A stretch of 64,000 bases of DNA, taken from NCBI RefSeq assembly GCF_055900595.2, contig NZ_CM148325.1; one strand, given 5' to 3'. The notes beneath the pieces are model-generated. The model was not told where the DNA came from and searched no databases. It saw only the letters and a program-made list of their open reading frames with translations. How positions within the stretch are numbered: the stretch's first letter is position 1; each line of letters opens with the position of its first letter. Shown here one piece after another: positions 18,746 to 48,997 of this stretch. The position numbers were made by a program, and so were the translations under genes.

Positions 18746-24297
<5,552 letters not shown>

Positions 24298-26765: not shown

Positions 26766-26779
26766 CCCCAAGAAACATC

Positions 26780-26810: not shown

Positions 26811-26827
26811 ACTGCATAGCACTTTGG

Positions 26828-27034
26828 TTAAGCCATCTCTGTTTGCAGACGCATAACCTGACGGTTAACTTCGGACATCACTGACAAATGCAGCTTATCC
26901 TTCACTTTTGGGATAAGAATCTTACCCTTATCAAATTCAAAAGCGCCAACGTCCTTGATGTATAACCGTCCACGGAACAGGATCTTTACGTACTTCGCCA
27001 CCTGCAGTGGGTTGTACCGTTGGAAAATTTTCAT
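26828..27034 (-). CDS. ytfK: Small protein YtfK (DUF1107)
   Basis: ORF-track start 27100 trimmed to [17 protein letters not shown], giving 68 aa. Confidence 0.8.
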
Positions 27035-27359
27035 TGTTATCTCCTGCTGAGTATTACGCCTTTGCGGTGCCACAATCGGCCCAACTATTATGAGGCGCAA
27101 ATTTTAATGCTTAGTGACTATAGACTATCCGGGTAATGTTTCCACCGCGTATAACTTTTTTTACCTAAAGGTTACAATTATTCAGAATTATCTTTTTACC
27201 GAAGCGCGGTCTTCAGTATAAGCATTCATTTTTCATATGATTTGTGCGCTTGACCGCAAACTGGCATCACACTTGCGGGAAATTCGATAAATAGCACATA
27301 TGATTAAAAGTCAGACCCCAAGTGGTCGGATCACCTGCATATCATAAGAAGGATACACC

Positions 27360-27914
27360 ATGACCCTACGTAAGATTCTGGCACTCACCTGCCTGCTGTT
27401 GCCGATGATGGCTTCCGCACATCAGTTTGAAACCGGTCAACGAGTGCCACCGATAGGCATTACCGATCGGGGCGAGTTAGTGCTTGATAAAGATCAGTTT
27501 AGCTACAAAACCTGGAACAGCGCGCAGTTAGTGGGAAAAGTGCGAGTACTGCAACATATTGCTGGTCGCACCTCTGCAAAAGAGAAAAACGCGACGCTGA
27601 TTGAAGCGATTAAATCAGCAAAGTTACCGCACGATCGTTACCAGACCACCACCATTGTGAACACCGACGACGCGATTCCGGGTTCTGGCATGTTTGTGCG
27701 CAGCAGTCTGGAGAGTAATAAAAAGCTTTATCCCTGGTCGCAGTTTATTGTCGATAGCAATGGCATCGCGCGCGGTGCCTGGCAGCTAGATGAAGAAAGT
27801 TCCGCTGTAGCGGTGCTGGACAAAGACGGTCGAGTGCAATGGGCCAAAGACGGTGCGCTCACTCAGGAAGAGGTGCAGCAAGTGATGAACCTGCTGCAAA
27901 AGTTGCTCAAATAA
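27360..27914 (+). CDS. ytfJ: Periplasmic protein YtfJ
   Basis: 184-aa ORF with a signal peptide; conserved neighbour of ytfK. Confidence 0.85.
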   Translation: MTLRKILALTCLLLPMMASAHQFETGQRVPPIGITDRGELVLDKDQFSYKTWNSAQLVGKVRVLQHIAGRTSAKEKNATLIEAIKSAKLPHDRYQTTTIVNTDDAIPGSGMFVRSSLESNKKLYPWSQFIVDSNGIARGAWQLDEESSAVAVLDKDGRVQWAKDGALTQEEVQQVMNLLQKLLK

Positions 27915-27945
27915 TGTTAATAACATAAATTCTGGAAAAATAAAT

Positions 27946-27976
27946 TTCCCCTATCGATATATATGGGATAGGGGAA
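27946..27976. terminator. Hairpin between the convergent ytfJ and ytfI-like genes
   Basis: TCCCCTATC ... GATAGGGGA inverted repeat; weak T-run. Confidence 0.4.
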
Positions 27977-28014
27977 TTAAGTCTCTGAGTTTTTACGCCG
28001 AACTCATACTAGTA

Positions 28015-28938
28015 TCAATAACCCTTATTCGCGTTTAACGGTTTTACCTCTTTTTTAAACGCTTCAATGGTAGATTTATATTTCTCGGAAATCTTTTCTT
28101 CGGTATAATTACCGTTTGCGGCCAGATTTGCACTTATAATCGCTTCCACTTGCTCGGTTATTTCCACTTGTTGGTAACCTGCATTAACCAGAAAATTATA
28201 AATAAGAGAGTAATCTTCACCCTGCAAAAAAATATAAGAGCCAGTTCGAAATTCCTCATCCCCTCCATAGATTTTAAGAGCAAAGCCCAAAGATTCTATG
28301 ACCATGGCATAATTTCCATTATTTATTTTCTCGCAAAAATACCATCCTTCACATTCTTTAATGCTACCTCCTGGCCCTTCAAGTTCAAATTTACCCCGTT
28401 TTAATTTGCTTACTACATTCTCAAAATAAGCAGAACCGTAAGACAAGCCACCCGCCGCCGTCCGAAAATAACCGTTAATCCTTTCAGGTATGTCAGACTG
28501 TTTTTTCTGCAAAATATCATAGGCATACAATCTTCTATTTTGTGCTAGTGGAAATTCACGGTTCTTAAAGTCTATAAATGAGTTATACTCATTTATTGTT
28601 ATAGAGATTTCTTCGTATTCAAATCCATTGCCTCGCAATGTCATTGTATATTCGGCACCGTTATCTTTAAGGCGGAAGCTGATAAGAAAATTATCCATGG
28701 CGTGAACGGTTTCATCTTTTGATGAAAGCACCTGATAACTATTTTTATCGATCTGTGTTGCTCTAAGAAAGAACTCCCTTAAAATTAACAGACTATCATA
28801 ATTCGAAATCCAATCCCTTTTCTTAAATGCATGCTGAATATTATTAAAGAAATTATTTGAATGTATTTTTGTATGCGATGACTTTACAAATAACTCCACT
28901 GCACCAAAAAAATTATTGTGTCTGATCTTGGGTAACAT
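28015..28938 (-). CDS. ytfI: Uncharacterized protein, AT-rich gene (YtfI-like by position)
   Basis: 307-aa ORF in a markedly AT-rich stretch with Asn/Lys/Tyr/Phe-rich composition; position between cysQ and ytfJ matches K-12 ytfI; no domain recognised. Confidence 0.6.
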   Translation of the reverse strand: MLPKIRHNNFFGAVELFVKSSHTKIHSNNFFNNIQHAFKKRDWISNYDSLLILREFFLRATQIDKNSYQVLSSKDETVHAMDNFLISFRLKDNGAEYTMTLRGNGFEYEEISITINEYNSFIDFKNREFPLAQNRRLYAYDILQKKQSDIPERINGYFRTAAGGLSYGSAYFENVVSKLKRGKFELEGPGGSIKECEGWYFCEKINNGNYAMVIESLGFALKIYGGDEEFRTGSYIFLQGEDYSLIYNFLVNAGYQQVEITEQVEAIISANLAANGNYTEEKISEKYKSTIEAFKKEVKPLNANKGY

Positions 28939-29150
28939 ATGACAACCTTATTATATTTGGTTATTCTATGTCGCCATTAAATATCTTGTTAAAGAAGTAA
29001 ACTATCAAAAAACGCTCATTATTAAAATATAACTTATTAGCGTTAGAATATTTACACTTTAAATACAATCCCTTTATATCTATAACTTTTTAGGTTGGAA
29101 ACAAATCAGGATGGCAGAATCAGGAAATACACTGTTTCTGCCATCTGTAT

Positions 29151-29891
29151 TTAATAAATAGAGACTCTGAACCCAGGATTCAGGAACGACTCGCGCGGGG
29201 TATAATCCAGCGGTTTACCCTGCCAGTCGTGAACGTGCGCTCCGGCCGCTGCCGCAACTGCGTGACCGGCAGCGGTATCCCAAATATTAGTTGGCCCGAA
29301 ACGCGGATAGAGTTGAGCCTGCCCTTCCGCCACCAGGCAGAATTTCAGCGAAGAGCCGATAGACGTGGTTTGATGTTCGCCAAGCTGTTGCAGATACTCT
29401 TTCAGCTCCGCATCCGCATGGGAACGGCTGATCACCACCAGCGGCGGGCGCGCATCGCGGACCTGAATCTGCTTGCGTACACCGCACTCTTCTTTCCAGG
29501 CTTTGCCGTCTGCCGCGCTGTACATTACGTTCATTACCGGCGCATACACCACACCTAAAATCGGTTTGCCGTGGTCGATGAGCGCAATATTAACGGTGAA
29601 TTCACCATTACGTTTAATAAACTCTTTAGTACCATCCAGCGGGTCTACCAGCCAGTAACGCTGCCAGTGTTGACGGACTTCCCAACCGGGAGGATCTTCT
29701 TCAGAAAGGACCGGAATATCCGGTGTCAGCGTACGTAAACCGTCCATGATAACGGTGTGTGCGGCAATATCCGCTGCCGTTACCGGAGAATTGTCCGCTT
29801 TGCTGACGACGTCCATCGGTTTCGTCCCGTCGTAGACCTGCATAATGGCATCGCCTGCATTCCGTGCAAGCTGGCATACTTGATCTAACAT
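29151..29891 (-). CDS. cysQ: 3'(2'),5'-bisphosphate nucleotidase
   Basis: 246-aa inositol monophosphatase-family ORF with the WLVDPLDGT motif. Confidence 0.9.
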
Positions 29892-30080
29892 TTCTCCACC
29901 TCGTCTCTGTGAGCGGTGTTAACTTGTTGTTTTACTTATACCCTATCGTTAAAGAATGCGCCAACTGTGATAGTGTCATCATTTTCAAAGCGTTAAATTG
30001 TGGCATTCTTCACTGTTCTAAAAGTAAGAGGTTTATTCTCCCTTTTCTTTCGAATTCCCGATGATAAAAGGATGTCCCTG

Positions 30081-32024
30081 ATGATTAAGTTTAGCGCAAC
30101 GCTCCTGGCCACGCTGATTGCCGCGAGTGTGAATGCAGCGACGGTCGATCTGCGTATCATGGAAACCACTGATTTGCATAGCAACATGATGGATTTCGAT
30201 TATTACAAAGACACCGCCACGGAAAAATTCGGACTGGTACGTACGGCAAGCCTGATTAACGATGCCCGCAATGAAGTGAAAAACAGCGTACTGGTCGATA
30301 ATGGCGATTTGATTCAGGGGAGTCCGCTAGCGGATTACATGTCGGCGAAAGGATTAAAAGCCGGAGATATTCACCCTGTCTATAAGGCATTGAATACGCT
30401 GGACTATACCGTCGGCACACTCGGTAACCACGAGTTTAACTACGGTCTGGATTACCTGAAAAATGCACTGGCAGGAGCAAAATTCCCTTATGTAAACGCC
30501 AACGTCATTGACGCTAAAACCAAACAGCCCATGTTTACACCGTATTTGATTAAAGACACCGAAGTGATCGATAAAGACGGAAAAAAACAGACGCTGAAGA
30601 TTGGCTATATTGGCGTCGTACCGCCGCAGATTATGGGATGGGATAAAGCTAATTTATCCGGGAAAGTGACGGTGAATGATATTACCGAAACCGTGCGCAA
30701 GTACGTGCCTGAAATGCGCGAGAAAGGTGCCGATCTCGTTGTCGTTTTGGCGCATTCTGGTCTGTCTGCCGATCCGTATAAAGTGATGGCGGAAAACTCA
30801 GTTTATTACCTCAGTGAAATTCCGGGCGTTAACGCCATTATGTTTGGCCATGCTCACGCCGTTTTCCCAGGTAAAGATTTTGCTGATATTGAAGGGGCTG
30901 ATATCGCCAAAGGCACGCTGAACGGCGTTCCGGCGGTAATGCCGGGCATGTGGGGCGATCATCTCGGCGTGGTCGATCTGCAACTCAATAATGACAGCGG
31001 AAAATGGCAGGTGACGCAGGCGAAAGCGGAAGCACGCCCGATTTACGATATCGCCAATAAAAAATCTCTCGCGGCGGAAGACAGTAATCTGGTCGATACG
31101 CTTAAAGCCGATCACGAGGCCACACGCCAGTTTGTCAGCAAACCAATCGGTAAATCTGCCGACAATATGTATAGCTATCTGGCGCTGGTGCAGGACGATC
31201 CGACCGTGCAGGTGGTAAACAACGCACAAAAAGCGTATGTCGAACATTACATTCAGGGCGATCCGGATCTGGCAAAACTGCCGGTGCTTTCAGCTGCCGC
31301 ACCGTTTAAAGTCGGTGGTCGCAAAAATGATCCGGCAAGCTATGTGGAAGTGGAAAAAGGCCAATTAACCTTCCGTAACGCCGCCGATCTTTACCTCTAT
31401 CCCAATACGCTGATTGTGGTGAAAGCCAGCGGTAAAGAGGTGAAAGAGTGGCTGGAATGCTCCGCCGGACAGTTTAACCAGATTGATCCCAACAGCACGA
31501 AACCACAGTCACTCATCAACTGGGATGGTTTCCGCACCTATAACTTTGACGTCATTGATGGTGTGAATTATCAGATTGATGTTACTCAGCCCGCCCGCTA
31601 TGACGGCGAGTGCCAGGTGGTTAATGCCAATGCGGAAAGGATTAAGAACCTGACCTTTAACGGCAAGCAGATTGATCCGAACGCGATGTTCCTCGTTGCC
31701 ACCAATAACTATCGCGCTTACGGCGGCAAATTTGCAGGTACGGGCGATAGCCATATCGCTTTTGCTTCACCGGATGAGAACCGCTCGGTGCTGGCAGCGT
31801 GGATTGCAGATGAGTCGAAGCGTGCGGGGGAAATTCACCCGGCGGCAGATAACAACTGGCGTTTAGCACCGATTCCTGGCGATAAGAAACTGGATATCCG
31901 TTTCGAAACCTCTCCGTCAGACAAAGCCGCGGCGTTTATTAAAGAGAAAGGACAATATCCGATGAATAAAGTCGCGACCGATGATATCGGCTTTGCGATT
32001 TATCAGGTGGATTTGAGTAAGTAA
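30081..32024 (+). CDS. cpdB: 2',3'-cyclic-nucleotide 2'-phosphodiesterase / 3'-nucleotidase (periplasmic)
   Basis: ORF-track start 30000 trimmed to the ATG at 30081 ([19 protein letters not shown]), giving 647 aa; calcineurin-like metallophosphatase plus 5'-nucleotidase C-terminal domain. Confidence 0.9.
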
Positions 32025-36778: not shown

Positions 36779-37086
36779 GTTTTTTTCTTCCTGTACCTGT
36801 CTGTGTTGTTCAGGCTCTGCGGCCTTTAGTCAGTCTATGATACGACGAATCTGTATCGGGACTCATCGATATTAGGTAACAATACGCGGGATGAATACTA
36901 AGATTTAGATCTAATGTTAATTTTATGTTTAAAGTGAGTGTCATATCACGGTGATAACGCGAAACAGCTCACAAAAATACACGCTTACGTGGTCTTTGCA
37001 ACACAAAATAGCGCCATTTGGCAAACTGAAGGGTTTATTGCTGAATGCCTGCTCCCCTCTGGCTCGAGGGGAACAGAATGCGCTGC

Positions 37087-37707
37087 TTAGAGGATTTCCA
37101 GCAGTTCGACTTCAAACACCAGGGTGCTGAACGGAGGGATGGACGCGCCTGCGCCACGCTCGCCATATGCCAGTTCCTGCGGGATAGTCAGTTCCCATTT
37201 AGAACCTACCGGCATCAGAGTCAGTGCTTCAATCCAGCCAGGGATCACGCCGTTAACCGGGAATTCAGCTGGCTCGCCGCGAGCGACGGAGCTGTCAAAC
37301 ACGGTGCCGTCGATCAGTTTTCCGGTGTAATGAACACGAACGCGGTCGGTACGTGCCGGAATTGCGCCTGCACCCTGGTTGATCACGCGGAATTGCAGGC
37401 CAGATTCGGTGCTATTCACACCTTCTTTTTTGGCGTTTTCTTCCAGGTATTTCACACCTTCAGCAGCCATCGCCTGGAAACGCTGACGACGAACGGCATC
37501 GGCGCGTTCGTGGATTTCACGCAGCGCGCGGTGCACCACATCAACCGGAACAGCCGGATGTTTGCCTTCCAGCGCATCGGCAATGCCTGCAACCAGTGCT
37601 TCTGGCAGCAGCCCTTCCAGGCCTGATTCACTCAGTTGTTGCCCTACCTGCAAACCAATGCCGTAGCTTGCTTGCGCTTCGATGGTGTCAAAAGTTGGGG
37701 TGGTCAT
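37087..37707 (-). CDS. fklB: FKBP-type peptidyl-prolyl cis-trans isomerase
   Basis: ORF-track start 37866 trimmed to [20 protein letters not shown], giving 206 aa; FKBP domain. Confidence 0.9.
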
Positions 37708-37924
37708 CGTATTTCCTTTCTTAGGGTATAAAGTAGCGGGCAGCATATCAGCCACACTTCTTTGGGTAAAACTTTGTCGCGGGAATGATGACAAATCCCG
37801 GGGAAAAAGAAACAATAGCAATATCCCGTATGAATATAATAAAGGCGGGTTTACCACGGACATCATAGCGTTAGCTTATTCATAGGCTATGATTGAGGAA
37901 CAAGACGCGGAGCAGGAGGAAACC

Positions 37925-38563
37925 ATGCCCGGGCGCTTTGAACTAAAACCAACCCTGGAGAAAGTCTGGCACGCGCCGGACAATTTTCGCTTCATGGACC
38001 CGCTACCGCCGATGCATCGTCGGGGGATCATTATTGCCGCTATTGTATTGGTGGTCGGATTTCTACTCCCGTCTGATGATACGCCAAACGCGCCGGTGGT
38101 GACGCGTGAAGCACAGTTAGATATTCAGTCGCAATCACAACCGCCGACAGAAGAACAGCTGCGGGCGCAATTAGTCACACCACAAAATGATCCTGATCAG
38201 GTGGCTCCGGTCGCTCCAGAACCGATACAGGAAGGCCAACCGGAAGAGCAGCCGCAAACCTCGCAAGTGCAACCTTTCCAGCCAGATAGCGGAATTGACA
38301 ATCAATGGCGCTCTTATCGTGTCGAACCCGGTAAAACAATGGCGCAGCTGTTCCGCGACCACGGACTGCCCGCTACCGATGTCTATGCAATGGCGCAGGT
38401 AGAAGGCGCAGATAAGCCACTGAGTAATTTGCAAAATGGGCAGATGGTGAAAATCCGCCAGAACGCCAGCGGCGTGGTGACGGGCTTAACCATTGATACG
38501 GGAAATAATCAACAGGTCCTGTTTACCCGCCAGCCGGATGGCAGTTTTATTCGCGCGCGGTAG
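37925..38563 (+). CDS. ytfB: OapA/LysM-domain cell-division-associated protein
   Basis: Start trimmed to [15 protein letters not shown] (about 212 aa); TM anchor, Pro/Gln-rich linker, C-terminal OapA-like domain. Confidence 0.75.
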
Positions 38564-39194
38564 ATGAAGGGTCAACCAGAAGCCAGCTAAGGATCGTCTC
38601 TTTGATGACCTTACGCCTGGCTTCCAGTGCCTGCGGTGAAACCATACTGATGTGATAAACCAGGCCAAGCGTATGTTGGTTGATCAAATAATATCCTCCA
38701 AGAGCAGCAATATTAATATTCACCTGCAACGGGTCGATATCTGGCTTAAAAATATTGCGCCGTTTGCCTTCAGCTAATAATGACTCCATTAACTGTAAGT
38801 GTGCGTGGTTAATTTCTAAAAGGCGCTGTGATTTTGCATAATGCACCCCTTTACTCTGGTTTTCACTATGCACAATTTTTAAAAACCAGGGGTTAGCAAT
38901 GTAATAATCCCAGGTGAAATCGATAATTTTCTCAATGGCTTTTTGTGGCGGAAGACCTGAGAAATCAAGGGATTTTTCTTTTTGCCGAATATCATTCCAG
39001 GTATATTCCAGCACTTCGATAAATAAATTTTCTTTATTACCAAAGTGATGATAAACCGTCTGTTTACTGCACTCCGCGGCCTTGACGATATTATCGACTC
39101 TGGCCCCTTCGTAACCATATTCGGCAAATTCATTAACCGCACATAACAACAGCTTTTCCTTCAGGCTTTGTACGTTGCTGGTATCAAGATACAT
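38547..39194 (-). CDS. TetR/AcrR-family transcriptional regulator, divergent from the island operon
   Basis: N-terminal TetR HTH ([45 protein letters not shown]); ATG at 39194 favoured over the GTG at 39254; occupies the position of K-12 ytfA. Confidence 0.7.
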
Positions 39195-39299
39195 TCCGCT
39201 TCCCCACGTCTTCTTCGTGATGACTATCTTAACCCGATTTGTTAGAAGCTCCACTAAAATGGCTAAAAACTCGCAATTTCATCGGGTTATCAAATGCTC

Positions 39300-39315
39300 T
39301 GTGATCATTATCGCA
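39300..39315. promoter_or_regulatory. CRP-like site TGTGA-N6-TCGCA in the divergent promoter region
   Basis: One mismatch to the TGTGA-N6-TCACA consensus; read by eye. Confidence 0.3.
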
Positions 39316-39316
39316 T

Positions 39317-39338
39317 ATCAACCAACTAGATGGTTGAT
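39317..39338. promoter_or_regulatory. Perfect inverted repeat ATCAACCA-N6-TGGTTGAT; candidate operator for the TetR-family regulator
   Basis: 22-bp palindrome between the divergent regulator and SDR genes, about 70 bp upstream of the SDR start. Confidence 0.4.
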
Positions 39339-39405
39339 CTTTCTTGCCACACATTGCAAGCTAATCGTCACTTAAGGAAATAATATTCAAAAAGAGGGTT
39401 ATTGT

Positions 39406-40197
39406 ATGAAGTCAACACGTCCTGTTGCTGTCATCACTGGAGCCGCACGTGGTATTGGAAAGGGCTGTGCACTGGAACTTGCGCGTGGCGGATTTAATCT
39501 GCTGATTAATGATCGTCCGGATGCCGACAGCGTAGAAAAATTACATGCCACACAACAAGAATGTCTGGCGGAAGGCGTGGAAGTGATTTGCTTCCCTGCT
39601 GATGTTGGCGATCTCTCCCTTCATGAAGAGATGCTCGACGCGGCGCAAAACCAGTGGGGACGTCTGGACTGTCTACTCAACAACGCAGGCATTTCAGTGA
39701 AAAAACGCGGTGACCTCCTCGACCTCGAACCAGACAGCTTCGACCAAAACATTGCCATTAACACCCGTGCGCCGTTCTTCCTTGCTCAGGCATTCAGTAA
39801 GCGATTACTGGCACAGCCGAAACCGGAAGCAGAACTGCCGCACCGCTCGATTATTTTTGTCAGTTCCATAAACGCCATCATGCTGGCGATGAATCGCGGC
39901 GAATATACCATTGCCAAAACTGCCGTCTCCGCCGCAGCTCGCCTGTTTGCCGCTCGCCTTTGCAATGAACAAATTGGCGTTTATGAAGTGCGCCCTGGCC
40001 TAATCAAAACCGATATGACCATTCCGGCAACGGCTTATTACGACGAACTGATTGCTAAGGGGTTAGTGCCGTGGGGACGTTGGGGTTATCCGGCTGATAT
40101 TGCCTCAACGGTCCGCGCGATGGCGGAAGGCAAACTGATTTACACCTGTGGTCAGGCGGTCGCCATCGACGGCGGCTTAAGTATGCCGCGCTTCTGA
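39406..40197 (+). CDS. Short-chain dehydrogenase/reductase (SDR)
   Basis: 263-aa ORF with the TGAARGIGKG Rossmann motif; AAGAGGG Shine-Dalgarno upstream. Confidence 0.75.
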   Translation: MKSTRPVAVITGAARGIGKGCALELARGGFNLLINDRPDADSVEKLHATQQECLAEGVEVICFPADVGDLSLHEEMLDAAQNQWGRLDCLLNNAGISVKKRGDLLDLEPDSFDQNIAINTRAPFFLAQAFSKRLLAQPKPEAELPHRSIIFVSSINAIMLAMNRGEYTIAKTAVSAAARLFAARLCNEQIGVYEVRPGLIKTDMTIPATAYYDELIAKGLVPWGRWGYPADIASTVRAMAEGKLIYTCGQAVAIDGGLSMPRF

Positions 40198-40206
40198 GGC
40201 TGAATC

Positions 40207-41049
40207 ATGAGAGATCTGTTACAACGCCCGGATTTATTCAGTATCAATACTGCGACACTGGGCTATAAAACACCGCTACCTGCCATTATTGATGCCTGCG
40301 CCGCACGCGGTATTGGCGCGATTGCCCCCTGGCGCAGGGAGTTACAGGGTGAAGATCTCCAACAAATCGCCCGCCAGCTTGCTGCCAGTAACATGAGCGT
40401 TTCCGGTTTGTGCCGTAGCACCTATTACACCGCGCCGACGCTGACGGAACGCAAACTGGCGATTGATGATAACCGCCGGGCGCTGGACGACGCCGCTGTA
40501 CTAAACGCCGCCTGTTATATGCAGGTGGTTGGCGGTCTGCCAATGGGAACAAAAGATCTGTACGAAGCGCGGGAACAAGTGAAACAAGGGATTCGCCAGT
40601 TGCTGCCACATTCGAAAGATGTCGGCGTGCCAATTGCGCTGGAGCCGCTGCACCCGATGACAGCTGCCGATCGCTCTTGCCTGTGCACGTTACGTCAGGC
40701 GCTGGACTGGTGTGATGAACTCGATCCCGATGGGGAGTTTGGCCTCGGCGTGGCGGTAGATGTCTACCACGTTTGGTGGGATCCGGATCTCGCCAGTCAG
40801 ATCCTGCGTGCCGGAAAACGCATCCTCGCGTTTCATGTTTCCGACTGGCTGGTGCCAACCACCGATTTAGTCAATGACCGGGGAATGCCGGGAGATGGCG
40901 TAATCAATATTCCGTCTATTCGTCGCCAGGTAGAAAATGCCGGATTTAACGGTGCTGTGGAACTGGAAATTTTCTCACCGTACTGGTGGCAGCAAGATAT
41001 TAACAGCACGTTGGATATTAGCGTCGATCGCATCGCGCATTATTGCTAA
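40207..41049 (+). CDS. Sugar phosphate isomerase/epimerase-like TIM-barrel protein (xylose isomerase-like fold)
   Basis: 280-aa ORF whose length and motif pattern fit the xylose isomerase-like TIM barrel family; 9-bp gap after the SDR gene. Confidence 0.65.
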   Translation: MRDLLQRPDLFSINTATLGYKTPLPAIIDACAARGIGAIAPWRRELQGEDLQQIARQLAASNMSVSGLCRSTYYTAPTLTERKLAIDDNRRALDDAAVLNAACYMQVVGGLPMGTKDLYEAREQVKQGIRQLLPHSKDVGVPIALEPLHPMTAADRSCLCTLRQALDWCDELDPDGEFGLGVAVDVYHVWWDPDLASQILRAGKRILAFHVSDWLVPTTDLVNDRGMPGDGVINIPSIRRQVENAGFNGAVELEIFSPYWWQQDINSTLDISVDRIAHYC

Positions 41050-41052
41050 GGA

Positions 41053-41835
41053 ATGATCATGAGTGACCAACCCGTTCTGTTCAGCAGAGCGGCGGCTTCC
41101 TGCCGCCTGACATTGAACCGTGAAGATAAATGTCATGCTATTAATGAAGAAATGATCGAATCTCTCGACCATTATTTAAATGAAATTGAAAACGACACCA
41201 CATTACGATTAGTCGAATTAACGGCAACCGGCGATAAATTCTTTTGTGCGGGCGGCGATATTAAATCGTGGTCGGCCTATTCGCCATTAGATATGGGCAG
41301 AAAATGGATTAAACGCGGCAATGACGTTTTTAATCGCCTGCGCAACTTACCCCAATTAACGGTTGCGAATCTCAACGGTCATACCATCGGCGGCGGTATT
41401 GAACTTGCCTTGTGCTGCGATATTCGTATTGCCCGCCCCAGTGCGAAATTCTCTAATCCGGAAGTAATGCTCGGCATGGTGCCTGGCTGGATGGGCATTG
41501 AACGCGTGCTTAATCAGGTCGGTCCGGTGGTCGGTCGCCAGATGCTGATGCTGGGTAAACGCCTGACGGCGCAGGAAGCTCAGGCGGCGAATTTAATTGA
41601 TGAAGTGGTAGAAAAAGAACAGGTGGAAAGCTGGATGGCGAATCAGTTAGCGCAGCTGGAAAAATGCGGTCCGGTGGCGCTCGCACATATCAAGCAACTG
41701 ATTCTGGCTCTAGAAAATAAACATGCTGATTACCCGCACCAGTTACTGGCTGGATTAATGTCCGCCACTCAGGATTGCCAGCAGGCGACGCGCGCATTTG
41801 CCGAAAAAAGTAGCGTGAGCTTCCAAAATCAATAA
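41053..41835 (+). CDS. Enoyl-CoA hydratase/isomerase (crotonase) family protein
   Basis: 260-aa ORF with FFCAGGDIKSW and GHTIGGGIELALCCD crotonase motifs. Confidence 0.75.
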   Translation: MIMSDQPVLFSRAAASCRLTLNREDKCHAINEEMIESLDHYLNEIENDTTLRLVELTATGDKFFCAGGDIKSWSAYSPLDMGRKWIKRGNDVFNRLRNLPQLTVANLNGHTIGGGIELALCCDIRIARPSAKFSNPEVMLGMVPGWMGIERVLNQVGPVVGRQMLMLGKRLTAQEAQAANLIDEVVEKEQVESWMANQLAQLEKCGPVALAHIKQLILALENKHADYPHQLLAGLMSATQDCQQATRAFAEKSSVSFQNQ

Positions 41836-41844
41836 GGAAATTGT

Positions 41845-43386
41845 ATGCGTAAGATAACAACCGCCGAGACACTGGCGGCGCAAATTCAGGACGGCGCAAC
41901 CATTGCCATTAGCGGTAATGGCGGCGGCATGGTGGAAGCGGACCATATTCTGGCTGCTATTGAAGCGCGTTTCCTGCAAACCGGACACCCGCGCGATCTG
42001 ACATTAATCCACTCACTGGGCATTGGCGATCGCGACTGCAAAGGCACTAACCGCTTCGCTCATGCAGAGATGCTCAAACGCATCATTGCCGGACATTTTA
42101 CCTGGTCGCCCAAGATGCAGGATCTGGTGAAAAACAATGCTATTGAAGCCTACTGCTTCCCTGGTGGCGTAATTCAGGCACTGCTGCGGGAGATCGGTGC
42201 CGGACGTCCAGGGCTTTTTACCCACGTTGGGCTGGGATCGTTTGTTGATCCGCGCAACGGCGGCGGTAAGTCGAACGCTAGCAGCACTGAGGATCTGGTA
42301 GAACTGATTGAAATCGACGGTGAAACCAAACTTCGTTATCGCCCCTTCAAAGTGGACTACGCGATTTTGCGTGGCACTTATGCCGATCCGCGTGGCAACG
42401 TCAGCCTCGAAGAAGAGGCGATTGATATGGATAGCTATTCCATGGCGCTGGCAGCACACAACAGCGGCGGCAAAGTGTTCGTACAGGTGCGCGATGTGCT
42501 GGAAGCTGGTGCCATTGAACCACGCCGGGTCAAATTACCGGGCATTCTGGTTGATGGCATCGTTGAACACCGCGAACAACCGCAAACCTATCTTGGCGGT
42601 TACGACCTGACCATCAGCGGTCAGCATCGCCGTCTAAGTTCTAACGACGCAATTGAACTGGTTAGTCATCCGGTGCGCCGCCTGATTGCCCGTCGGGCAG
42701 CACGCGAACTGGTGGCTGGCGCTTCAACCAACTTTGGCTTTGGCATTCCCGGCGGCATTCCTGGGGTTGCACTGCGCGAAGGCGTGCCTTATCAAAGTTT
42801 ATGGCTGAGCGTAGAACAGGGTGTACATAACGGCATGATGCTGGATGATGCTCTGTTCGGCTGCGCCCGCAACGCCGATGCCATTATTCCATCACTCGAT
42901 CAATTCGAATTCTACAGTGGCGGAGGGATCGATATCACCTTCCTCGGCATGGGAGAGATGGATCAGTACGGTAACGTCAACGTCTCCCATCTCAATGGCA
43001 ATCTCATTGGCCCCGGCGGATTTCTCGAAATTGCGCAAAACGCCCGTAAAGTGGTGTTCTGCGGCACGTTCGACGCCAAAGGTAGCACGATTGATGTAAC
43101 ACCAGATGGCTTGCATATCGCCCAGTCAGGTCAAATCCCTAAACTGGTTACCCAGGTGGAAAAAATCACTTTTAGCGCCGCCTACGCACAGCAAAGCGGT
43201 CAGGAAGTGTTGTATATCACTGAACGTGCAGTATTCCAGTTAACAGCAGAAGGCGTTGAATTAATTGAAATCGCACCAGGTGTGGAGATTGAGCGCGACA
43301 TTCTGCCGCATATGGCCTTCCGTCCAATTATCAATCAGCCACGCCTGATGGAAAGTAGCCTGTTTACGCCGATGGAGGATGCATGA
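41845..43386 (+). CDS. CoA-transferase family protein (fused alpha/beta, family I-like)
   Basis: 513-aa ORF with Gly-rich motifs typical of acyl-CoA:acetate/3-ketoacid CoA transferases and citrate lyase alpha-like proteins; 4-bp overlap with the next gene. Confidence 0.65.
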   Translation: MRKITTAETLAAQIQDGATIAISGNGGGMVEADHILAAIEARFLQTGHPRDLTLIHSLGIGDRDCKGTNRFAHAEMLKRIIAGHFTWSPKMQDLVKNNAIEAYCFPGGVIQALLREIGAGRPGLFTHVGLGSFVDPRNGGGKSNASSTEDLVELIEIDGETKLRYRPFKVDYAILRGTYADPRGNVSLEEEAIDMDSYSMALAAHNSGGKVFVQVRDVLEAGAIEPRRVKLPGILVDGIVEHREQPQTYLGGYDLTISGQHRRLSSNDAIELVSHPVRRLIARRAARELVAGASTNFGFGIPGGIPGVALREGVPYQSLWLSVEQGVHNGMMLDDALFGCARNADAIIPSLDQFEFYSGGGIDITFLGMGEMDQYGNVNVSHLNGNLIGPGGFLEIAQNARKVVFCGTFDAKGSTIDVTPDGLHIAQSGQIPKLVTQVEKITFSAAYAQQSGQEVLYITERAVFQLTAEGVELIEIAPGVEIERDILPHMAFRPIINQPRLMESSLFTPMEDA

Positions 43387-45455
43387 GTCAGCTTGATGAC
43401 ACCCTCCTTGATGCGCTGACGCACGTCACTTTCCCGAAGGGTTTTGCACAGGCAGAACCCGCATGGGTTGTCACGGTAGACGGTGTTGATTACCCACTCT
43501 GGCAAACAGATGCCCTGGTAGTCGGCAGTGGTGCAGCCGGGCTGCGTGCAGCTGTGGAACTTAAGCGCCGCCAGCAAAATGTGCTGATCGCCACCGCCGG
43601 GTTATATATGGGGACATCGGCATGTTCTGGTTCCGATAAACAGACGCTGTTTACCGCCGCTACCGCGGGCAACGGCGATAACTTCGCCAAACTGGCAGAG
43701 GCACTGGCGAGCGGCGGCGCAATGGATCACGATACCGCTTATGTTGAAGCGGTTGGTTCCCTGCACACTCTTGGCGGGTTGCAATATCTTGGTCTGGAAT
43801 TACCGGAAGATCGCTATGGCGCAATTCTTCGTTATCAAACCGACCATGACGAAGCCGGGCGAGCAACCTCGTGTGGGCCGCGGACCTCAAGGTTAATGGT
43901 GAAAGTACTGCTGGAAGAAGTACAGCGTCTCGCCATTCCAGTGTTGACCAGTGCAACAGTAATTAAACTGCTGCATCAGCGTGACGAAAACGGTGAAGAC
44001 CGCGTGGCGGGGGCAATCCTCGCGACCGGTCATCGTGCCCATAACCCATGGGGGCTGGCAATTGTGACTGCGCCCAATGTGGTACTGGCAACAGGAGGGC
44101 CTGGCGAGCTTTATCGTGACAGTGTGTACCCACACAAATGTTTCGGCTCGCTGGGGCTGGCGCTGGAAGAAGGTCTGACGTTAACGAATCTGACCGAAAG
44201 CCAGTTTGGTATAGGCACGCCGCGCAGCACCTTTCCGTGGAATTTATCCGGGACTTATGTACAGGTGATCCCATACATCTATTCGGTGGATGCCGGGGGC
44301 AACGAGTATAACTTCCTCGCAGATTACTATCGCACCACCCAGGAGCTGGCTTCAAACATCTTCCGTAAAGGCTATCAGTGGCCGTTTCACGCCACACGAG
44401 TGATGGATTTTGGCTCCAGCTTGTTAGATATGGCAGTAGCGCAAGAGCAGCAATCAGGACGTCAGGTATTTATGGATTTCAATCGCAATCCTGAACCTGT
44501 GCCGGGTGACCTGCCGTTCTCATTAGATCGACTGGACGACGACGTTCGCGCGTATCTGGAAAATAACGACGCTCTGGCACCATCGCCCATCGAACGACTG
44601 CAACGAATGAATCCGCTGTCTATCTCGCTGTATAAGATGCACGGTTACGATCTCACCACGCAGCCATTGCAGTTTGCCATGAATAATCAGCATATGAATG
44701 GCGGCATTGAAGTGGATATCTGGGGGCAAACCTCCCTGTCCGGCTGTTTCGCCGTGGGGGAAGTTGCTGGCACACACGGCGTCACTCGCCCTGGTGGTGC
44801 GGCATTGAATGCCGGGCAGGTTTTTGCTGTTCGTCTGGCACGTTTTATTGGTTGCACGCAAAAACGTAATATTGATGGAGATATAGCACAGCTGGTAGCT
44901 CCGGCACTGGCTTCTATAAGAGAGATCATTACTCAGGCGCACGATAACGGGACCGGGATGCCGTTGTCGGTTGTGAGGGAAAAAATTCAGGCACGAATGT
45001 CTGACCATGCGGGATTTATTTGTCATGCCGATAAAGTCCGACGCGCCACTCGTGATGCCCTGCTATTGAACGAATTTGTGCAACGGCATGGATTGGCAAT
45101 CAAACATGTGGGTGAAGTTGCCGAGCTGTTTATGTGGCGGCATATGGCGCTGACTTCTGCCGCGGTATTAACACAATTAACGCATTATATTGATGCTGGT
45201 GGTGGTAGCCGTGGGGCGCGTATGGTTATTGATCCACAAGGCAAATGCCTACCACAAACTCGTCGCGGCGCAAAAGAAGAATGGCGTTTTCGCTCTGAAC
45301 TCGCTGAAGACAAAAATCACAAATTAACAATTCAATATTCGCAAGGTTCTTTTATTACCGAAGTAAAGTCTTTACGTATGCAACCGTGTATTAACGGTAT
45401 TTACTTTGAAAAAAACTGGCCAGACTTTTTAAAGGGAGACATTTACACACAGTAA
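43383..45455 (+). CDS. FAD-dependent oxidoreductase of the succinate dehydrogenase/fumarate reductase/L-aspartate oxidase flavoprotein family, with a C-terminal extension
   Basis: 690-aa ORF with N-terminal VVGSGAAGLRAA dinucleotide-binding motif and C-terminal GEVAGTHGVTRPGGAALNAG motif. Confidence 0.7.
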   Translation: MSQLDDTLLDALTHVTFPKGFAQAEPAWVVTVDGVDYPLWQTDALVVGSGAAGLRAAVELKRRQQNVLIATAGLYMGTSACSGSDKQTLFTAATAGNGDNFAKLAEALASGGAMDHDTAYVEAVGSLHTLGGLQYLGLELPEDRYGAILRYQTDHDEAGRATSCGPRTSRLMVKVLLEEVQRLAIPVLTSATVIKLLHQRDENGEDRVAGAILATGHRAHNPWGLAIVTAPNVVLATGGPGELYRDSVYPHKCFGSLGLALEEGLTLTNLTESQFGIGTPRSTFPWNLSGTYVQVIPYIYSVDAGGNEYNFLADYYRTTQELASNIFRKGYQWPFHATRVMDFGSSLLDMAVAQEQQSGRQVFMDFNRNPEPVPGDLPFSLDRLDDDVRAYLENNDALAPSPIERLQRMNPLSISLYKMHGYDLTTQPLQFAMNNQHMNGGIEVDIWGQTSLSGCFAVGEVAGTHGVTRPGGAALNAGQVFAVRLARFIGCTQKRNIDGDIAQLVAPALASIREIITQAHDNGTGMPLSVVREKIQARMSDHAGFICHADKVRRATRDALLLNEFVQRHGLAIKHVGEVAELFMWRHMALTSAAVLTQLTHYIDAGGGSRGARMVIDPQGKCLPQTRRGAKEEWRFRSELAEDKNHKLTIQYSQGSFITEVKSLRMQPCINGIYFEKNWPDFLKGDIYTQ

Positions 45456-45547
45456 TTTTCAATATTTACTCTGTACCTGATTTTTATTGCCTATTACATG
45501 GAAATACCAACAACCAGGGTTTATTAATATAATTAAAAGGTTTAAAA

Positions 45548-46825
45548 ATGAATAAAATAAAGAATTATCGATGGCATATGATTGCCCTCGTATGCTTTAT
45601 CACTGTAATCAATTATCTGGACAGAACGGCGTTAGGTATTGCGGCTCCAACGATTATGGAGACAACCGGAATAACCAAAGAACAATATTCATGGATTGTC
45701 AGTGCATTCCAGTTGGCCTATACATTGGGGCAACCGGTAATGGGCTTCTTTATTGATACCGTGGGTCTGAAGTTAAGTTTTGCGATATGTGCCGCAATCT
45801 GGGGCCTGGCGACAATGGGGCATGCCTTGACAGGAACATGGTCAGGTCTGGCATTTATGCGCGCCCTGATGGGTTTCAGCGAAGCATCGGCAATTCCTGC
45901 GGGTGTAAAAACCGCATCAACATGGTTCCCGGCAAAAGAGCGTGGCGTGGCGACAGGTGTTTTCAATATGGGCACCTCACTCGGCGCGATGCTTGCTCCA
46001 CCGTTGATTGCCTGGTGCATTATGTTTCATAGCTGGCAATTTGCGTTTATTGTCTCAGGTAGCCTTGCTTTACTCGCGGCTTTATTTTGGTTCTTTTGTT
46101 ATAAAGATCCAAAAGATGCTAAACGCCTTTCTGATGAAGAGCGCCACTATATTGAGTCTGGGCAAGAACAGCATCTTAAAACAGATAAGAAAGAAAAAAC
46201 GTCAATCAAGCATATCCTCAGCCAACGTAATTTCTGGGGGATTGGCATCGCGCGTTTTCTCGCTGACCCGGCATGGGGAACCATTAACTTCTGGGTACCG
46301 ATTTTCTTCGTCGAAACGCTGCATTTTAGCCTGAAAGAAATTGCCATGTTCGTCTGGCTGCCTTTCCTGCTGGGCGATCTCGGCTGTTTAGCCAGTGGTT
46401 TTGTCGCGAAGTTCTTCCACGATCGCGGCGTGAGTTTAATTAACTCACGAAGAATTACCTTCACTATTGCAGCCGTCATTATGATGACGATTGGTCTGGT
46501 GAGTATTGTCGAAAATCCCTACATCGCCGTATTACTGATTAGCATTGGCGCATTCTCGCATCAATGTCTTTCTACTGTTGCAGCAACTCTGGGCGGTGAC
46601 CTATTCAAAAAAGACGAAGTAGCTACCGCTGTGGGTATGGCAGGAGCCTGTGCATGGAGCGGTCAGTTGATTTTCAACCTGTTTATCGGGGCATTCGTTC
46701 ACATTATTGGCTTCGCGCCGTTCTTTATTGCCCTGGCTTTCTTTGACATTATTGGTGCTATTGCGTTGTGGACGCTTATCAAAGTTAAAGATGAAGAACC
46801 ACAAGTACAGTTAGCTACCCACTAA
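45548..46825 (+). CDS. MFS transporter, anion:cation symporter (ACS) family, ExuT/GudP-like (acidic sugar or organic acid uptake)
   Basis: 425-aa 12-TM ORF whose N-terminus (NYLDRTALGIAAPTIME) resembles hexuronate/glucarate transporters. Confidence 0.8.
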   Translation: MNKIKNYRWHMIALVCFITVINYLDRTALGIAAPTIMETTGITKEQYSWIVSAFQLAYTLGQPVMGFFIDTVGLKLSFAICAAIWGLATMGHALTGTWSGLAFMRALMGFSEASAIPAGVKTASTWFPAKERGVATGVFNMGTSLGAMLAPPLIAWCIMFHSWQFAFIVSGSLALLAALFWFFCYKDPKDAKRLSDEERHYIESGQEQHLKTDKKEKTSIKHILSQRNFWGIGIARFLADPAWGTINFWVPIFFVETLHFSLKEIAMFVWLPFLLGDLGCLASGFVAKFFHDRGVSLINSRRITFTIAAVIMMTIGLVSIVENPYIAVLLISIGAFSHQCLSTVAATLGGDLFKKDEVATAVGMAGACAWSGQLIFNLFIGAFVHIIGFAPFFIALAFFDIIGAIALWTLIKVKDEEPQVQLATH

Positions 46826-47094
46826 TTATTTTAAATAAAAACGCTATAATTGAGGTTATGGCGTTTTTAAAGAAGCTTGAGTTATCGAACCTAGCTTACC
46901 AACGCGTTGTCAGTCATCTCCCCCCTCCCTGGTGCATCGTTATATCCGTGATGAGCGATTTTTGATATTAATATCTTTCACCATCCGCTATTTTCACCAC
47001 TTCAGAAAACAAACTTATTTTTATTAATATCAATTCTTTTTCTTTGAACATTCAACTGCGATATTTGTAAAAATATTAAACAGGCAACAATAAA

Positions 47095-47889
47095 ATGACA
47101 TTACCAACAACTATTTATTCATTCCCCGCATATTTACCTCGTTTTTCGTCCACCGACAAACCAGCAAAACTAAAATTTCATCAATACGCACGCGCTACAT
47201 TACTGTCAAATCGTGGAAGAGATCATAATTGCGATGGCAGACGTACTGTTGAGATCCACAAACTAGATCTCTCAGACTGGCAAGCATTCAATAAGCTAGC
47301 GACGAGGTGTAATACTTACGATGGAATAACAATGAATGGTGATAATTCTTTTGGATGGAACCATGAAGCTACATTAGATAATATTCACGCCCAGAAATAC
47401 AATAAAGCTTACGCGGGTGCGCGGTTAACCGCAGAACTGAAATATTTATTGCAAGATGTCGAATCCTTCGAACCCAACAGTAAATACACAATACACGAAG
47501 TGGTTTTGGGACCTGGTTATGGTACTCCAGACTATACCGGCCAAACGATAGGATACGTTGTAACCCTTCCTGCCCAAATGCCTAATTGCTGGTCATCTGA
47601 ACTACCAACAATCGATCTTTATATCGACCAACTTCGCACTGTTACAGGCGTTTCTAATGCCCTCGGATTCATCATTGCTGCATTGCTAAACGCGTATTCT
47701 GATTTACCCCATGATTTGAAAATTGGTCTACGTTCCTTATCAAATTCAGCCGCAATCTACTCGGGTTTAGGTTTCGAGCGAGTGCCGCAGGACCGAGACA
47801 TAAGGAGTGATCGTATGCATCTAACGCCAGCAAACCATCCTGACTTATGGACACAAGAGAATGGTGAATGGATCTACTTGCGAAATTAA
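47095..47889 (+). CDS. yjfZ: Uncharacterized protein YjfZ
   Basis: 264-aa ORF in an AT-rich context; length and position next to rplI match K-12 yjfZ as I recall it. Confidence 0.65.
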   Translation: MTLPTTIYSFPAYLPRFSSTDKPAKLKFHQYARATLLSNRGRDHNCDGRRTVEIHKLDLSDWQAFNKLATRCNTYDGITMNGDNSFGWNHEATLDNIHAQKYNKAYAGARLTAELKYLLQDVESFEPNSKYTIHEVVLGPGYGTPDYTGQTIGYVVTLPAQMPNCWSSELPTIDLYIDQLRTVTGVSNALGFIIAALLNAYSDLPHDLKIGLRSLSNSAAIYSGLGFERVPQDRDIRSDRMHLTPANHPDLWTQENGEWIYLRN

Positions 47890-47910
47890 TGCCTGACGAA
47901 AAATAGAAAG

Positions 47911-47939
47911 CAAAACGCCGACCAATGGTCGGCGTTTTT
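47911..47939. terminator. Bidirectional rho-independent terminator between yjfZ and the rpsF operon
   Basis: ACGCCGACC-AATG-GGTCGGCGT stem flanked by AAAA upstream and TTTTT downstream. Confidence 0.7.
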
Positions 47940-47959
47940 ACGTCTCGTTGAATAACGAA

Positions 47960-48421
<462 letters not shown>

Positions 48422-48450
48422 TCAAAGTCGTATTAATGGACCGTGACCGA

Positions 48451-48997
<547 letters not shown>

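Follow-up and report, generated by a model that had tools for sequence, protein, structure and literature searches.

A TetR-linked six-gene operon between ytfB and yjfZ of Escherichia and its possible role in the catabolism of a ring-type carboxylic acid

The window analyzed here is a stretch of 64 kb from contig NZ_CM148325.1 (assembly GCF_055900595.2). Between ytfB and yjfZ it carries a gene for a TetR-family regulator, which is divergently transcribed from a compact operon of six genes. These code for a short-chain dehydrogenase/reductase (SDR), a TIM-barrel enzyme, a crotonase, a coenzyme A (CoA) transferase, a flavoprotein and a transporter of the major facilitator superfamily (MFS). Our preferred reading, held tentatively and with somewhat less than even confidence, is that the operon would serve to import and degrade a polyhydroxylated ring-type monocarboxylate under the control of CRP and TetR. 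The most likely substrate is one with a six-membered ring, either a sugar acid of the uronate type or a hydroaromatic acid of the quinate/shikimate type. All proteins are members of known superfamilies, and the regulation follows a common layout; the enzyme combination is undescribed in the literature and databases searched. The flavoprotein family is large, yet no characterized member was found, and the operon, though widespread in E. coli, is missing from the laboratory reference strain.

Genes, control region and predicted chemistry

Protein families were assigned by searches of NCBIfam, Pfam and the Protein Data Bank (PDB), and the gene starts of homologs are those annotated in RefSeq. The seven open reading frames (ORFs) at 38547-46825 are seen in the six-frame ORF list as the divergent TetR gene and six plus-strand genes. 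They are bordered by ytfB (37889-38563, plus strand) on one side and by yjfZ (47095-47889), followed by rplI, on the other. A divergent regulator and a compact co-directional operon had been described at this position in an earlier note made from the sequence alone, and the enzyme families named there were upheld by the searches. The SDR and TIM-barrel genes are separated by 9 nt, the TIM-barrel and crotonase genes by 3 nt (9 nt when counted from the equivalent of the RefSeq start, 41059) and the crotonase and CoA-transferase genes by 9 nt, while the CoA-transferase and flavoprotein genes overlap by 4 nt (ATGA). The note had the first two gaps and the overlap right but gave 8 bp for the third gap, and it did not mention the 92-nt AT-rich spacer before the transporter gene (45456-45547), which is the junction at which transporters are exchanged.

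The first operon gene (39406-40197, plus strand), which is preceded by GAGGG at 39394-39398, codes for a classical SDR of 263 aa (PRK12745, 420 bits; PDB 4da9, 1e-56). Its motifs are intact (TGAARGIG at 11, NNAG at 92 and YTIAK at 167). The protein matches the KduD, FabG and glucose-1-dehydrogenase families of NCBIfam at 1e-33 to 1e-41 (KduD at about 1e-33); an assignment as KduD was rejected (TIGR01832, 116.9 bits against a cut-off of 338.85). The second gene (40207-41049, plus strand) codes for a xylose-isomerase-like TIM-barrel enzyme of 280 aa, a homolog of Sinorhizobium meliloti SMc04130. It has the Pfam domain PF01261 (2.9e-37) and a TIM-barrel fold with conserved acidic and histidine metal ligands. 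Aldose-ketose isomerization is the typical chemistry of this fold. The nearest characterized relatives are IolI, QuiC1 (3-dehydroshikimate dehydratase) and ketose 3-epimerases; the best named one, IolI, has 17% sequence identity (1e-13 by profile). Similarity is below orthology level for IolI, IolE, 3-dehydroshikimate dehydratase and the ketose 3-epimerases, and the enzyme was also rejected as IolO, FrlC, Hyi or OtnI (NCBIfam scores of 21-28 bits against cut-offs of at least 300). The intact SDR motifs, taken together with TIM-barrel relatives such as IolI, QuiC1 and the ketose 3-epimerases, point to chemistry that proceeds via a keto intermediate.

The next two genes code for CoA enzymes. The crotonase-family enoyl-CoA hydratase (41053-41835, plus strand) has 260 aa, or 258 aa when starting at 41059 (NCBIfam enoyl-CoA hydratase, 1e-44). 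It scores below every NCBIfam equivalog cut-off. Both catalytic glutamates are kept (Glu117 in GGGIE and Glu137 in NPE, equivalent to E144 and E164 of rat enoyl-CoA hydratase), and the protein is predicted to be of the true (de)hydratase type. The other is a YdiF/FadX-like fused class I acyl-CoA:acetate/3-ketoacid CoA-transferase of 513 aa (41845-43386, plus strand). It matches the YdiF structure 2ahu over residues 6-508 (9e-114), has GPGGF at 389 and reaches 381 bits against NCBIfam FadX, which is below the cut-off; its orthologs carry PF01144. Transferases of the YdiF/Pct type typically use acetyl-CoA and short acids.

The fifth gene (43383-45455, plus strand) codes for a soluble flavoprotein of 690 aa with the FrdA/SdhA/NadB fold (Pfam FAD_binding_2, 2.3e-25). 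Its AlphaFold2 model (predicted local distance difference test score 88.7) matched FrdA in a Foldseek search with template modeling scores of 0.66/0.77 and 17% identity. In an alignment to NadB based on hidden Markov models, H351/R386 of NadB are retained as H437/R469, and the position of NadB H244 (FrdA H232) is taken by Gly276. The histidine that binds flavin adenine dinucleotide (FAD) covalently is absent, the corresponding segment GTSACSGSDKQ being devoid of histidine. The capping domain cannot be aligned, and the protein has an additional beta-rich region at its C-terminus. The protein was rejected as FrdA/SdhA, as it lacks the covalent-FAD histidine (FrdA H44) and keeps only one of the pairs H232/R287 and H355/R390, and as L-aspartate oxidase NadB (TIGR00551, 99.6 bits against 452.75; H244 replaced by Gly). 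With NadB, soluble fumarate reductases and UrdA it has the fold and the His/Arg clamp in common, and FAD would be bound noncovalently as in NadB; it differs from them by an identity of only about 17%, by the Gly in place of the second substrate-binding His and by the C-terminal region. In the FrdA/NadB family, the retained His/Arg pair binds the carboxylate beside the protonated carbon, and this pair alone is kept in urocanate reductase, an enzyme that acts on a monocarboxylate. Because only H437/R469 is kept, as in urocanate reductase, we infer that the substrate is a free monocarboxylate, the C-alpha/C-beta bond of which is reduced or oxidized. The family comprises 419 clusters (50% identity) below 1e-30, and the named database matches carry generic names only. 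Long antisense ORFs (80-167 aa) on the minus strand within the flavoprotein gene (43660-45026) are most likely by-products of composition, not genes.

The last gene (45548-46825, plus strand) codes for an MFS transporter of 425 aa from the anion:cation symporter (ACS) family, which is probably of the D-galactonate/hexuronate/glucarate type. The former description as ExuT/GudP-like agrees with TIGR00893, by far the best family match, although the score of 315.1 bits is below the subfamily cut-off of 395. The transporter is only about 50% identical to its counterparts from Klebsiella and Salmonella. In other E. coli strains, the MFS gene is replaced by a three-gene tripartite ATP-independent periplasmic (TRAP) system. 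Transporters are exchanged at the 3' end of the flavoprotein gene, where homology to the TRAP variant stops at 45446. The transporter is an exchangeable module, either MFS or TRAP. The binding protein of the TRAP system, WP_000695886.1, is closest to 4ovr, 4x8r, 4n8y, 4n15 and 4n91 (6e-72 to 1e-61) and keeps the two Arg and the Asn of these binders in the motifs GARS, RVQ and AEN. The ligands of those binding proteins are glucuronate and galacturonate (PMC7660916, PMC11668362). The ACS-family transporter, its replacement by a TRAP system and the likeness of the binding protein to glucuronate/galacturonate binders all argue for a carboxylate as substrate.

The regulator (38547-39194, minus strand) is a TetR/AcrR-family protein of 215 aa with TetR_N and TetR_C_29 domains, as judged from its ORF, the domains of its homologs and the RefSeq annotation of its orthologs. 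Mechanically, the ORF reaches up to a GTG at 39254; the RefSeq homologs have the 215-aa form, which begins with MYLDT. Orthologs and homologs carry PF00440 and PF17938. Matches to NCBIfam TetR families span residues about 7-155, and those to equivalogs are weak, the best being the acyl-CoA-sensing FadR of Bacillus. The intergenic region between the TetR and SDR genes (211 bp) contains a candidate TetR operator, the 22-bp palindrome ATCAACCAACTAGATGGTTGAT (39317-39338), which occurs only once in the window. A CRP-like site, TGTGATCATTATCGCA (39300-39315), adjoins the operator upstream and has one mismatch to TGTGA-N6-TCACA (9 of the 10 core bases). Both elements had been noticed before, and both proved to be conserved in orthologous promoters. 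For this, the regions between the TetR and SDR genes were compared for 14 loci, which come from nine genera or lineages (the cluster types are defined below). An operator-type inverted repeat, AACYAAC-N3-4-GTTRGTT, is present in 13 of these loci, among them E. coli, E. albertii, Klebsiella, the type B island of Salmonella, Brenneria, a metagenome-assembled genome (MAG) from the Rhodocyclaceae and the type F contig L093, with two copies each in Pseudescherichia and Mangrovibacter. It was not found in the second type F contig, L094. The CRP site occurs at the same position, with perfect consensus in Salmonella type B and Brenneria and near-consensus in Klebsiella. As the operator and CRP sites recur across promoters, the conserved footprint supports a predicted orthologous repressor/operator pair combined with catabolite control. 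A sigma-70 scan of the intergenic region revealed no clear -35/-10 pair and no convincing promoter, and an Rfam search of the leader/intergenic region revealed no RNA element.

In the scheme that we propose, the acid would enter by the MFS transporter (by TRAP in other strains). The acid itself, or an early intermediate, would free TetR from its operator, and cAMP-CRP would activate transcription. The SDR may convert a hydroxyl into a ketone (or may reduce a ketone), and the metal-dependent TIM-barrel enzyme may use this carbonyl to isomerize, epimerize or dehydrate the neighboring carbon, as do IolI, IolE, QuiC and KduI-type enzymes. The flavoprotein would hold one free carboxylate in its His437/Arg469 clamp and would add or remove hydrogens across C-alpha/C-beta, similar to monocarboxylate enoate reductases (urocanate). 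The YdiF/Pct-like CoA-transferase would make a thioester from acetyl-CoA, which the crotonase would hydrate or dehydrate at the beta carbon, so that the transferase, crotonase and flavoprotein together would resemble CaiB, CaiD and CaiA of carnitine metabolism. The exit may be provided by the core genome, with KdgK/Eda for a 2-keto-3-deoxy acid or thiolases for a 3-ketoacyl-CoA.

Distribution, deletion in K-12 and modular relatives

The TetR gene is the full-length version of the K-12 pseudogene ytfA. In a K-12-derived genome, the region between ytfB and yjfZ carries a 402-nt N-terminally truncated TetR pseudogene (the 3' part; ytfA), which bears out the former statement that only a ytfA remnant is found there in K-12. 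In a blastn comparison, this genome has homology to positions 37001-38949 and 46927-48500 of the window. Between these two blocks, K-12 retains a relic of 102 bp, which is 81% identical to a segment of the SDR gene (39495-39596, plus strand). As relics of the TetR and SDR genes remain there, the K-12 state is a deletion of about 7.9 kb (about 38950-39494 and 39597-46926). The interval had been recognized correctly as one that K-12 lacks; the alignment adds that K-12 has suffered a deletion, rather than the present strain an insertion. K-12 does not carry the same six genes, a possibility that the note had raised.

Among 5,426 complete E. coli genomes, 3,114 (about 57%) contain the five-enzyme block, counted at a coverage of at least 80%; the MFS gene is present in 1,685 and the TRAP transporter in 1,446 of them. 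The MFS form is carried by the probiotic Nissle 1917 and by NRG 857C, an adherent-invasive strain. At the cycA-fklB-ytfB / rplI position of Klebsiella oxytoca and of some Salmonella enterica, the genes are arranged in the same order. Because the position is the same in Klebsiella and Salmonella, the locus is ancestral in these genera and in Escherichia, and it has repeatedly been lost. Some E. coli and Shigella have decayed copies of it. What could be taken for a second, paralogous locus in E. coli/Shigella (with 207-aa TIM-barrel proteins) is the same locus in a decayed form. In O157:H7-type genomes, an insertion sequence (IS) of the IS200/IS605 type (IS609) splits the TetR gene; it carries tnpA and a gene for a TnpB/InsQ RNA-guided endonuclease. 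This insertion is a second, independent inactivation of the locus.

The locus has a mosaic history. The enzyme block (39406-45455) is a rare allele, with a best match of 97.3% and an identity of 90-95% to about 3,060 genomes, and the adjacent MFS gene (45548-46825) is at least 99% identical in 972 genomes. The combination of a rare enzyme block with a common MFS gene suggests recombination near the junction at 45446-45547, which is also the site of the MFS/TRAP exchange. When the TRAP system of E. coli (L003:10987-13831) is compared to that of the Rhodocyclaceae MAG (L092:15545-18637), DctP is 75.5% and DctM 85.7% identical, and the enzymes are 40-62% identical. As TRAP identity is far above that of the enzymes, this hints at a horizontal movement of the TRAP module between Beta- and Gammaproteobacteria.

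Related clusters were surveyed by scanning one genome per species with a profile of the flavoprotein and by running tblastn with the seven proteins against the matches. Neighboring ORFs were clustered, representatives were annotated with NCBIfam and protein-anchored look-ups were added. The mix of sugar-acid uptake and CoA enzymes, which the note had emphasized, is shown by this survey to be one configuration of a wider modular cluster family. Type A consists of TetR and SDR-TIM-crotonase-CoA-transferase-flavoprotein-transporter and occurs in Escherichia, Klebsiella, Salmonella and the Rhodocyclaceae MAG, where the cluster is complete and has MaoC and TRAP. Type B consists of TetR and SDR-TIM-flavoprotein with a PcaK-like aromatic-acid MFS transporter and is found in Brenneria and on a transposase-flanked island of Salmonella. 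Type C adds an IolG/LgdA-like gene of the Gfo/Idh/MocA family and another MFS transporter; its hosts are Pseudescherichia, Mangrovibacter, Lentisphaeria, Opitutia, Coraliomargarita and a betaproteobacterium. The added type C gene, which codes for 383 aa, was considered as an equivalent of DUF993, but the two are unrelated.

Type F consists of TetR and a CoA-transferase together with acyl-CoA dehydrogenase-SDR-DUF993-TIM, with a crotonase in one of the two loci. It was read from two metagenome-assembly contigs (L093 and L094), not from the S. meliloti genome. Among its proteins, the TIM barrel matches 3ju2/3qc0 and the DUF993 protein matches 4dnh, all of them structures from S. meliloti. The type F proteins are 51% (CoA-transferase), 56% (TIM barrel) and 48% (SDR) identical to those of the operon, and the TetR regulators are of the same subfamily. 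The DUF993 protein (PF06187) co-occurs in these contigs with the TetR-SDR-TIM core and the acyl-CoA dehydrogenase. Constant across types A, B, C and F are TetR, SDR and TIM barrel; the FrdA-like protein is present in types A to C and an acyl-CoA dehydrogenase in type F. The CoA-transferase/crotonase pair is an optional module across the cluster types.

Several of the surveyed clusters have further components. The betaproteobacterial cluster has a Liv-type ATP-binding cassette (ABC) system and, in addition, an acyl-CoA dehydrogenase, an electron-transfer flavoprotein (ETF) and MaoC. The genes around the clusters of Brenneria, Lentisphaeria, Opitutia and the betaproteobacterium have housekeeping or unrelated functions and give no context clue. 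The Salmonella enterica island (contig L091) carries a paralogous set of TetR and SDR-TIM-flavoprotein-PcaK-like MFS, with enzymes that are 58-69% identical and a TetR that is 42.7% identical. With its flanking genes for DDE and mutator-type transposases, it looks like a mobile island. Flavoprotein homologs with 52-57% identity that are devoid of the TetR/SDR/TIM core occur in Rhizobium, Devosia, Rhodobacteraceae and Phycisphaerae. Their neighbors in Rhizobium, Devosia and Rhodobacteraceae are a KdgK-like kinase, a protein similar to levoglucosan dehydrogenase, two GMC oxidoreductases, an ABC transporter for sugars and a LacI regulator, and in Phycisphaerae they adjoin an SDR and an aldolase of the 2-keto-3-deoxy-6-phosphogluconate (KDPG) type. 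Oxidoreductases of the Gfo/Idh/MocA family are also among the neighbors of flavoprotein homologs.

Some features at the borders of the locus and elsewhere in the window complete the description. A terminator-like hairpin, AACGCTATAA-TTGAGG-TTATGGCGTT followed by a T-run (46838-46869, plus strand), closes the operon; it was read directly and is absent from the list made by a simple scan. In an alignment with Nissle, homology stops at 46869. ytfB and the TetR gene are convergent and their 3' ends overlap by 17 nt (38547-38563), which leaves no space for separate terminators. yjfZ (DUF2686; no NCBIfam match) is itself variable. In Nissle its place is taken by genes for a frameshifted HipA-type toxin and a helix-turn-helix antitoxin (L001:11470-13233), it is missing in the TRAP variant, and an EamA transporter gene is found there in Klebsiella and Salmonella. 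In the tamAB-cpdB region (20000-32000), none of the complete E. coli genomes exceeds an identity of 98.6%, and 1,439 genomes reach only 90-95%. The window seems to derive from a divergent lineage of Escherichia and not from a mainstream phylogroup. No tRNA genes were found in the window.

Comparison to characterized systems and alternative readings

The RefSeq products of the operon homologs all carry generic names, as do the named matches of the TIM-barrel protein. Searches of NCBIfam, Pfam, the PDB and the literature returned no curated family, structure or paper that attributes a function to the operon, and none of them contained a known pathway at high identity, which the note had named as a possible outcome. 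The literature on the ytfA/yjfZ cluster, DUF993 and the S. meliloti homologs contained nothing functional beyond omics tables. The nearest solved structures, 3ju2/3qc0 (SMc04130), 4da9 and 4dnh, are structural-genomics entries without function.

A number of known systems have parts in common with the operon. The cai operon (CaiT, CaiA, CaiB, CaiD), which converts carnitine to gamma-butyrobetaine, is an accessory pathway of enterobacteria under catabolite control. Its transferase, CaiB, is of class III, CaiA is an acyl-CoA dehydrogenase and CaiF the regulator, and the system has no SDR or TIM barrel. It resembles our operon in having a transporter, a CoA-transferase, a crotonase and a flavoprotein, with a beta-hydroxy acid that is dehydrated as CoA ester and an enoyl product that is then handled. 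This likeness is one of gene types, and no relationship in sequence would be expected. The transferase of the operon is of class I and YdiF-like, the flavoprotein has the FrdA/NadB fold and the regulator is of the TetR family. IolG/IolI/IolE and QuiC1 are related at 17-19% identity, but the partner dehydrogenase in the operon is an SDR and not of the Gfo/Idh/MocA family (type C excepted), and there are no equivalents of IolD, IolB, IolC or IolJ. KduI/KduD and DhuI/DhuD also combine an isomerase with an SDR reductase that act on a diketone derived from a sugar acid, and have hexuronate-type transporters. However, KduI is a cupin and DhuI is RpiB-like, neither being a TIM barrel, and those systems lack CoA enzymes and a flavoprotein. 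The S. meliloti genes SMc04130-SMc04134 (3ju2/3qc0, 4dnh, 4da9) are connected via the type F loci, with homologous TetR_C_29, CoA-transferase, SDR, TIM-barrel and crotonase proteins; in this type, an acyl-CoA dehydrogenase and a DUF993 protein are found in place of the FrdA-like flavoprotein. The deoxyribonate pathway of Klebsiella michiganensis is a precedent for an enterobacterium that catabolizes a sugar acid as CoA thioesters, using MFS sugar-acid transporters and a CoA-transferase (Price et al. 2019, PMC6365646). It has a different gene set at a different locus and was rejected as the function of the operon: it includes a CoA synthetase, a 3-hydroxyacyl-CoA dehydrogenase, a thiolase, a lactonase and a glycerate kinase and, unlike the operon, has no TIM barrel, FrdA-like protein or crotonase (PMC6365646).

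Several points weigh against the reading of the operon as a route for a polyhydroxylated ring-type monocarboxylate. No member of the family has a known activity, and the order of the steps is wholly inferred. For the flavoprotein, the operon codes for no Fe-S, flavin mononucleotide or cytochrome partner protein, and no gene for an Fe-S subunit lies in the vicinity. By count, the CRP-like sites are at chance level, with 2 found in the window against 1.8 expected. The type B clusters of Salmonella and Brenneria, which have no CoA-transferase and crotonase, use PcaK-like transporters, and an ABC system of the Liv type is found in the betaproteobacterial cluster. The substrate class may therefore differ by type and need not be a sugar acid. 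The acyl-CoA dehydrogenase at the place of the flavoprotein in type F hints that the flavin step could act on a thioester. Finally, the operon has no thiolase, aldolase or kinase, which makes the exit to central metabolism a matter of conjecture. The substrate evidence itself is divided: the transporters of E. coli would favor sugar acids, while the relatives of the TIM barrel and the transporters of the sister clusters would favor carbocyclic or aromatic-type acids.

The type F arrangement leads to an unlikely alternative, a CoA-thioester route resembling beta-oxidation. Here, the transferase would activate a short/medium hydroxy- or alicyclic acid, the FrdA-like protein would stand in, without orthology, for an acyl-CoA dehydrogenase or an enoyl-CoA reductase, hydration would fall to the crotonase, the SDR would act as 3-hydroxyacyl-CoA dehydrogenase and a thiolase from the core genome would complete the turn, with a side role for the TIM barrel. 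Indeed, CoA-transferase, flavoprotein, crotonase and SDR make up a full turn minus the thiolase, and in type F a canonical acyl-CoA dehydrogenase occupies the slot of the FrdA-like protein, with shared partners and, in L093, the operator. The acyl-CoA dehydrogenase, ETF and MaoC of the betaproteobacterial cluster fit as well, as does Bacillus FadR, an acyl-CoA sensor, as the best (weak) NCBIfam match of the regulator. However, types B and C are self-contained with SDR, TIM barrel and flavoprotein and do without CoA-transferase and crotonase; the flavoprotein retains the His/Arg pair for a free carboxylate, its homologs are mostly found in sugar-type neighborhoods, and the conserved TIM barrel would be left without a role.

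Two further readings are specific versions of the ring-type monocarboxylate scheme and differ from each other in the substrate. One, which we consider improbable, would convert a hexuronate to 2-keto-3-deoxygluconate (KDG). A uronate that UxaC cannot use (for example L-iduronate, mannuronate or guluronate) would undergo a CoA-assisted beta-elimination of its 4-hydroxyl by the CoA-transferase and the crotonase, and the resulting 4,5-unsaturated uronate would open to 5-keto-4-deoxyuronate. The TIM barrel in the role of KduI and the SDR in that of KduD would yield KDG for KdgK/Eda, the flavoprotein acting on an enoate. It is consistent with this that the TRAP binding protein closely resembles binders of glucuronate and galacturonate and shares their ligand motifs, that the MFS transporter appears to be of the ExuT/GudP/DgoT subfamily, and that a KdgK-like kinase and a KDPG-type aldolase lie beside flavoprotein homologs of Alphaproteobacteria and Phycisphaerae. 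The matches of the SDR to the KduD families at about 1e-33 and aldose-ketose isomerization as the typical chemistry of the TIM-barrel fold also speak for it. Against it, the SDR reaches only 117 bits where the cut-off for KduD is 339, and the nearest characterized relatives of the TIM barrel act on carbocyclic ketones, not on 5-keto-4-deoxyuronate. The flavoprotein would have no clear necessary role, and the sister clusters have transporters of the aromatic-acid type. We know of no CoA-dependent elimination on a uronate, which also counts against this version.

The carbocyclic relatives of the TIM barrel are instead accommodated by the other version, of comparably low probability, in which a hydroaromatic acid of the quinate, shikimate or dihydroshikimate type would be catabolized without aromatization or used reductively. 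SDR and TIM barrel would be a ring dehydrogenase and a dehydratase/isomerase, the FrdA-like protein would saturate a cyclohex-1-ene-1-carboxylate and the CoA enzymes would start ring processing at the level of the CoA ester. IolI (an inosose isomerase) and QuiC1, the nearest relatives of the TIM barrel, both act on carbocyclic ketones; type C clusters have the IolG-like Gfo/Idh/MocA gene, related clusters have PcaK-type and Liv-type transporters, and the flavoprotein bears the characteristic features of a monocarboxylate enoate reductase. A genome of the Rhodocyclaceae contains a complete type A cluster, and we count in favor that this family includes Propionivibrio, fermenters that are specialized on quinate and shikimate. 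All of this is circumstantial, however. Both E. coli transporters are of the sugar-acid type, and no genes of the dehydroquinase or shikimate dehydrogenase type were found in the related clusters examined.

For either substrate of the ring-type monocarboxylate scheme, the operon could represent a new type of pathway, although this is doubtful. Such a sugar-acid or hydroaromatic route would use a free-acid enoate oxidoreductase from a new family with the FrdA/NadB fold, combined with a CoA-transferase/crotonase pair. By analogy to Cai-like chemistry, one version may be a CoA-assisted beta-elimination on a monomeric uronate or a cyclitol carboxylate.

Relevance for Escherichia coli and the flavoprotein family

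The physiology of E. coli has mostly been defined on K-12, a strain in which this locus is deleted, and over half of the complete genomes keep an intact operon that seems to be regulated. Identification of the substrate would add a nutrient niche with relevance to gut or urinary colonization. It would also give a first function to the FrdA-like family and to the TIM barrels of the SMc04130 type, and DUF993 would gain one by association. Direct tests of the function are made possible by the conserved operator, the binding protein of the TRAP system and four existing crystal structures. If the operon does represent a new pathway type, an acid from the gut or urinary tract that K-12 cannot use would be accessible to most other E. 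coli, B2 and Nissle-type strains among them, and a function would be attributed to a flavoprotein family that comprises more than 400 clusters and extends from Proteobacteria to Planctomycetota and gut Firmicutes.

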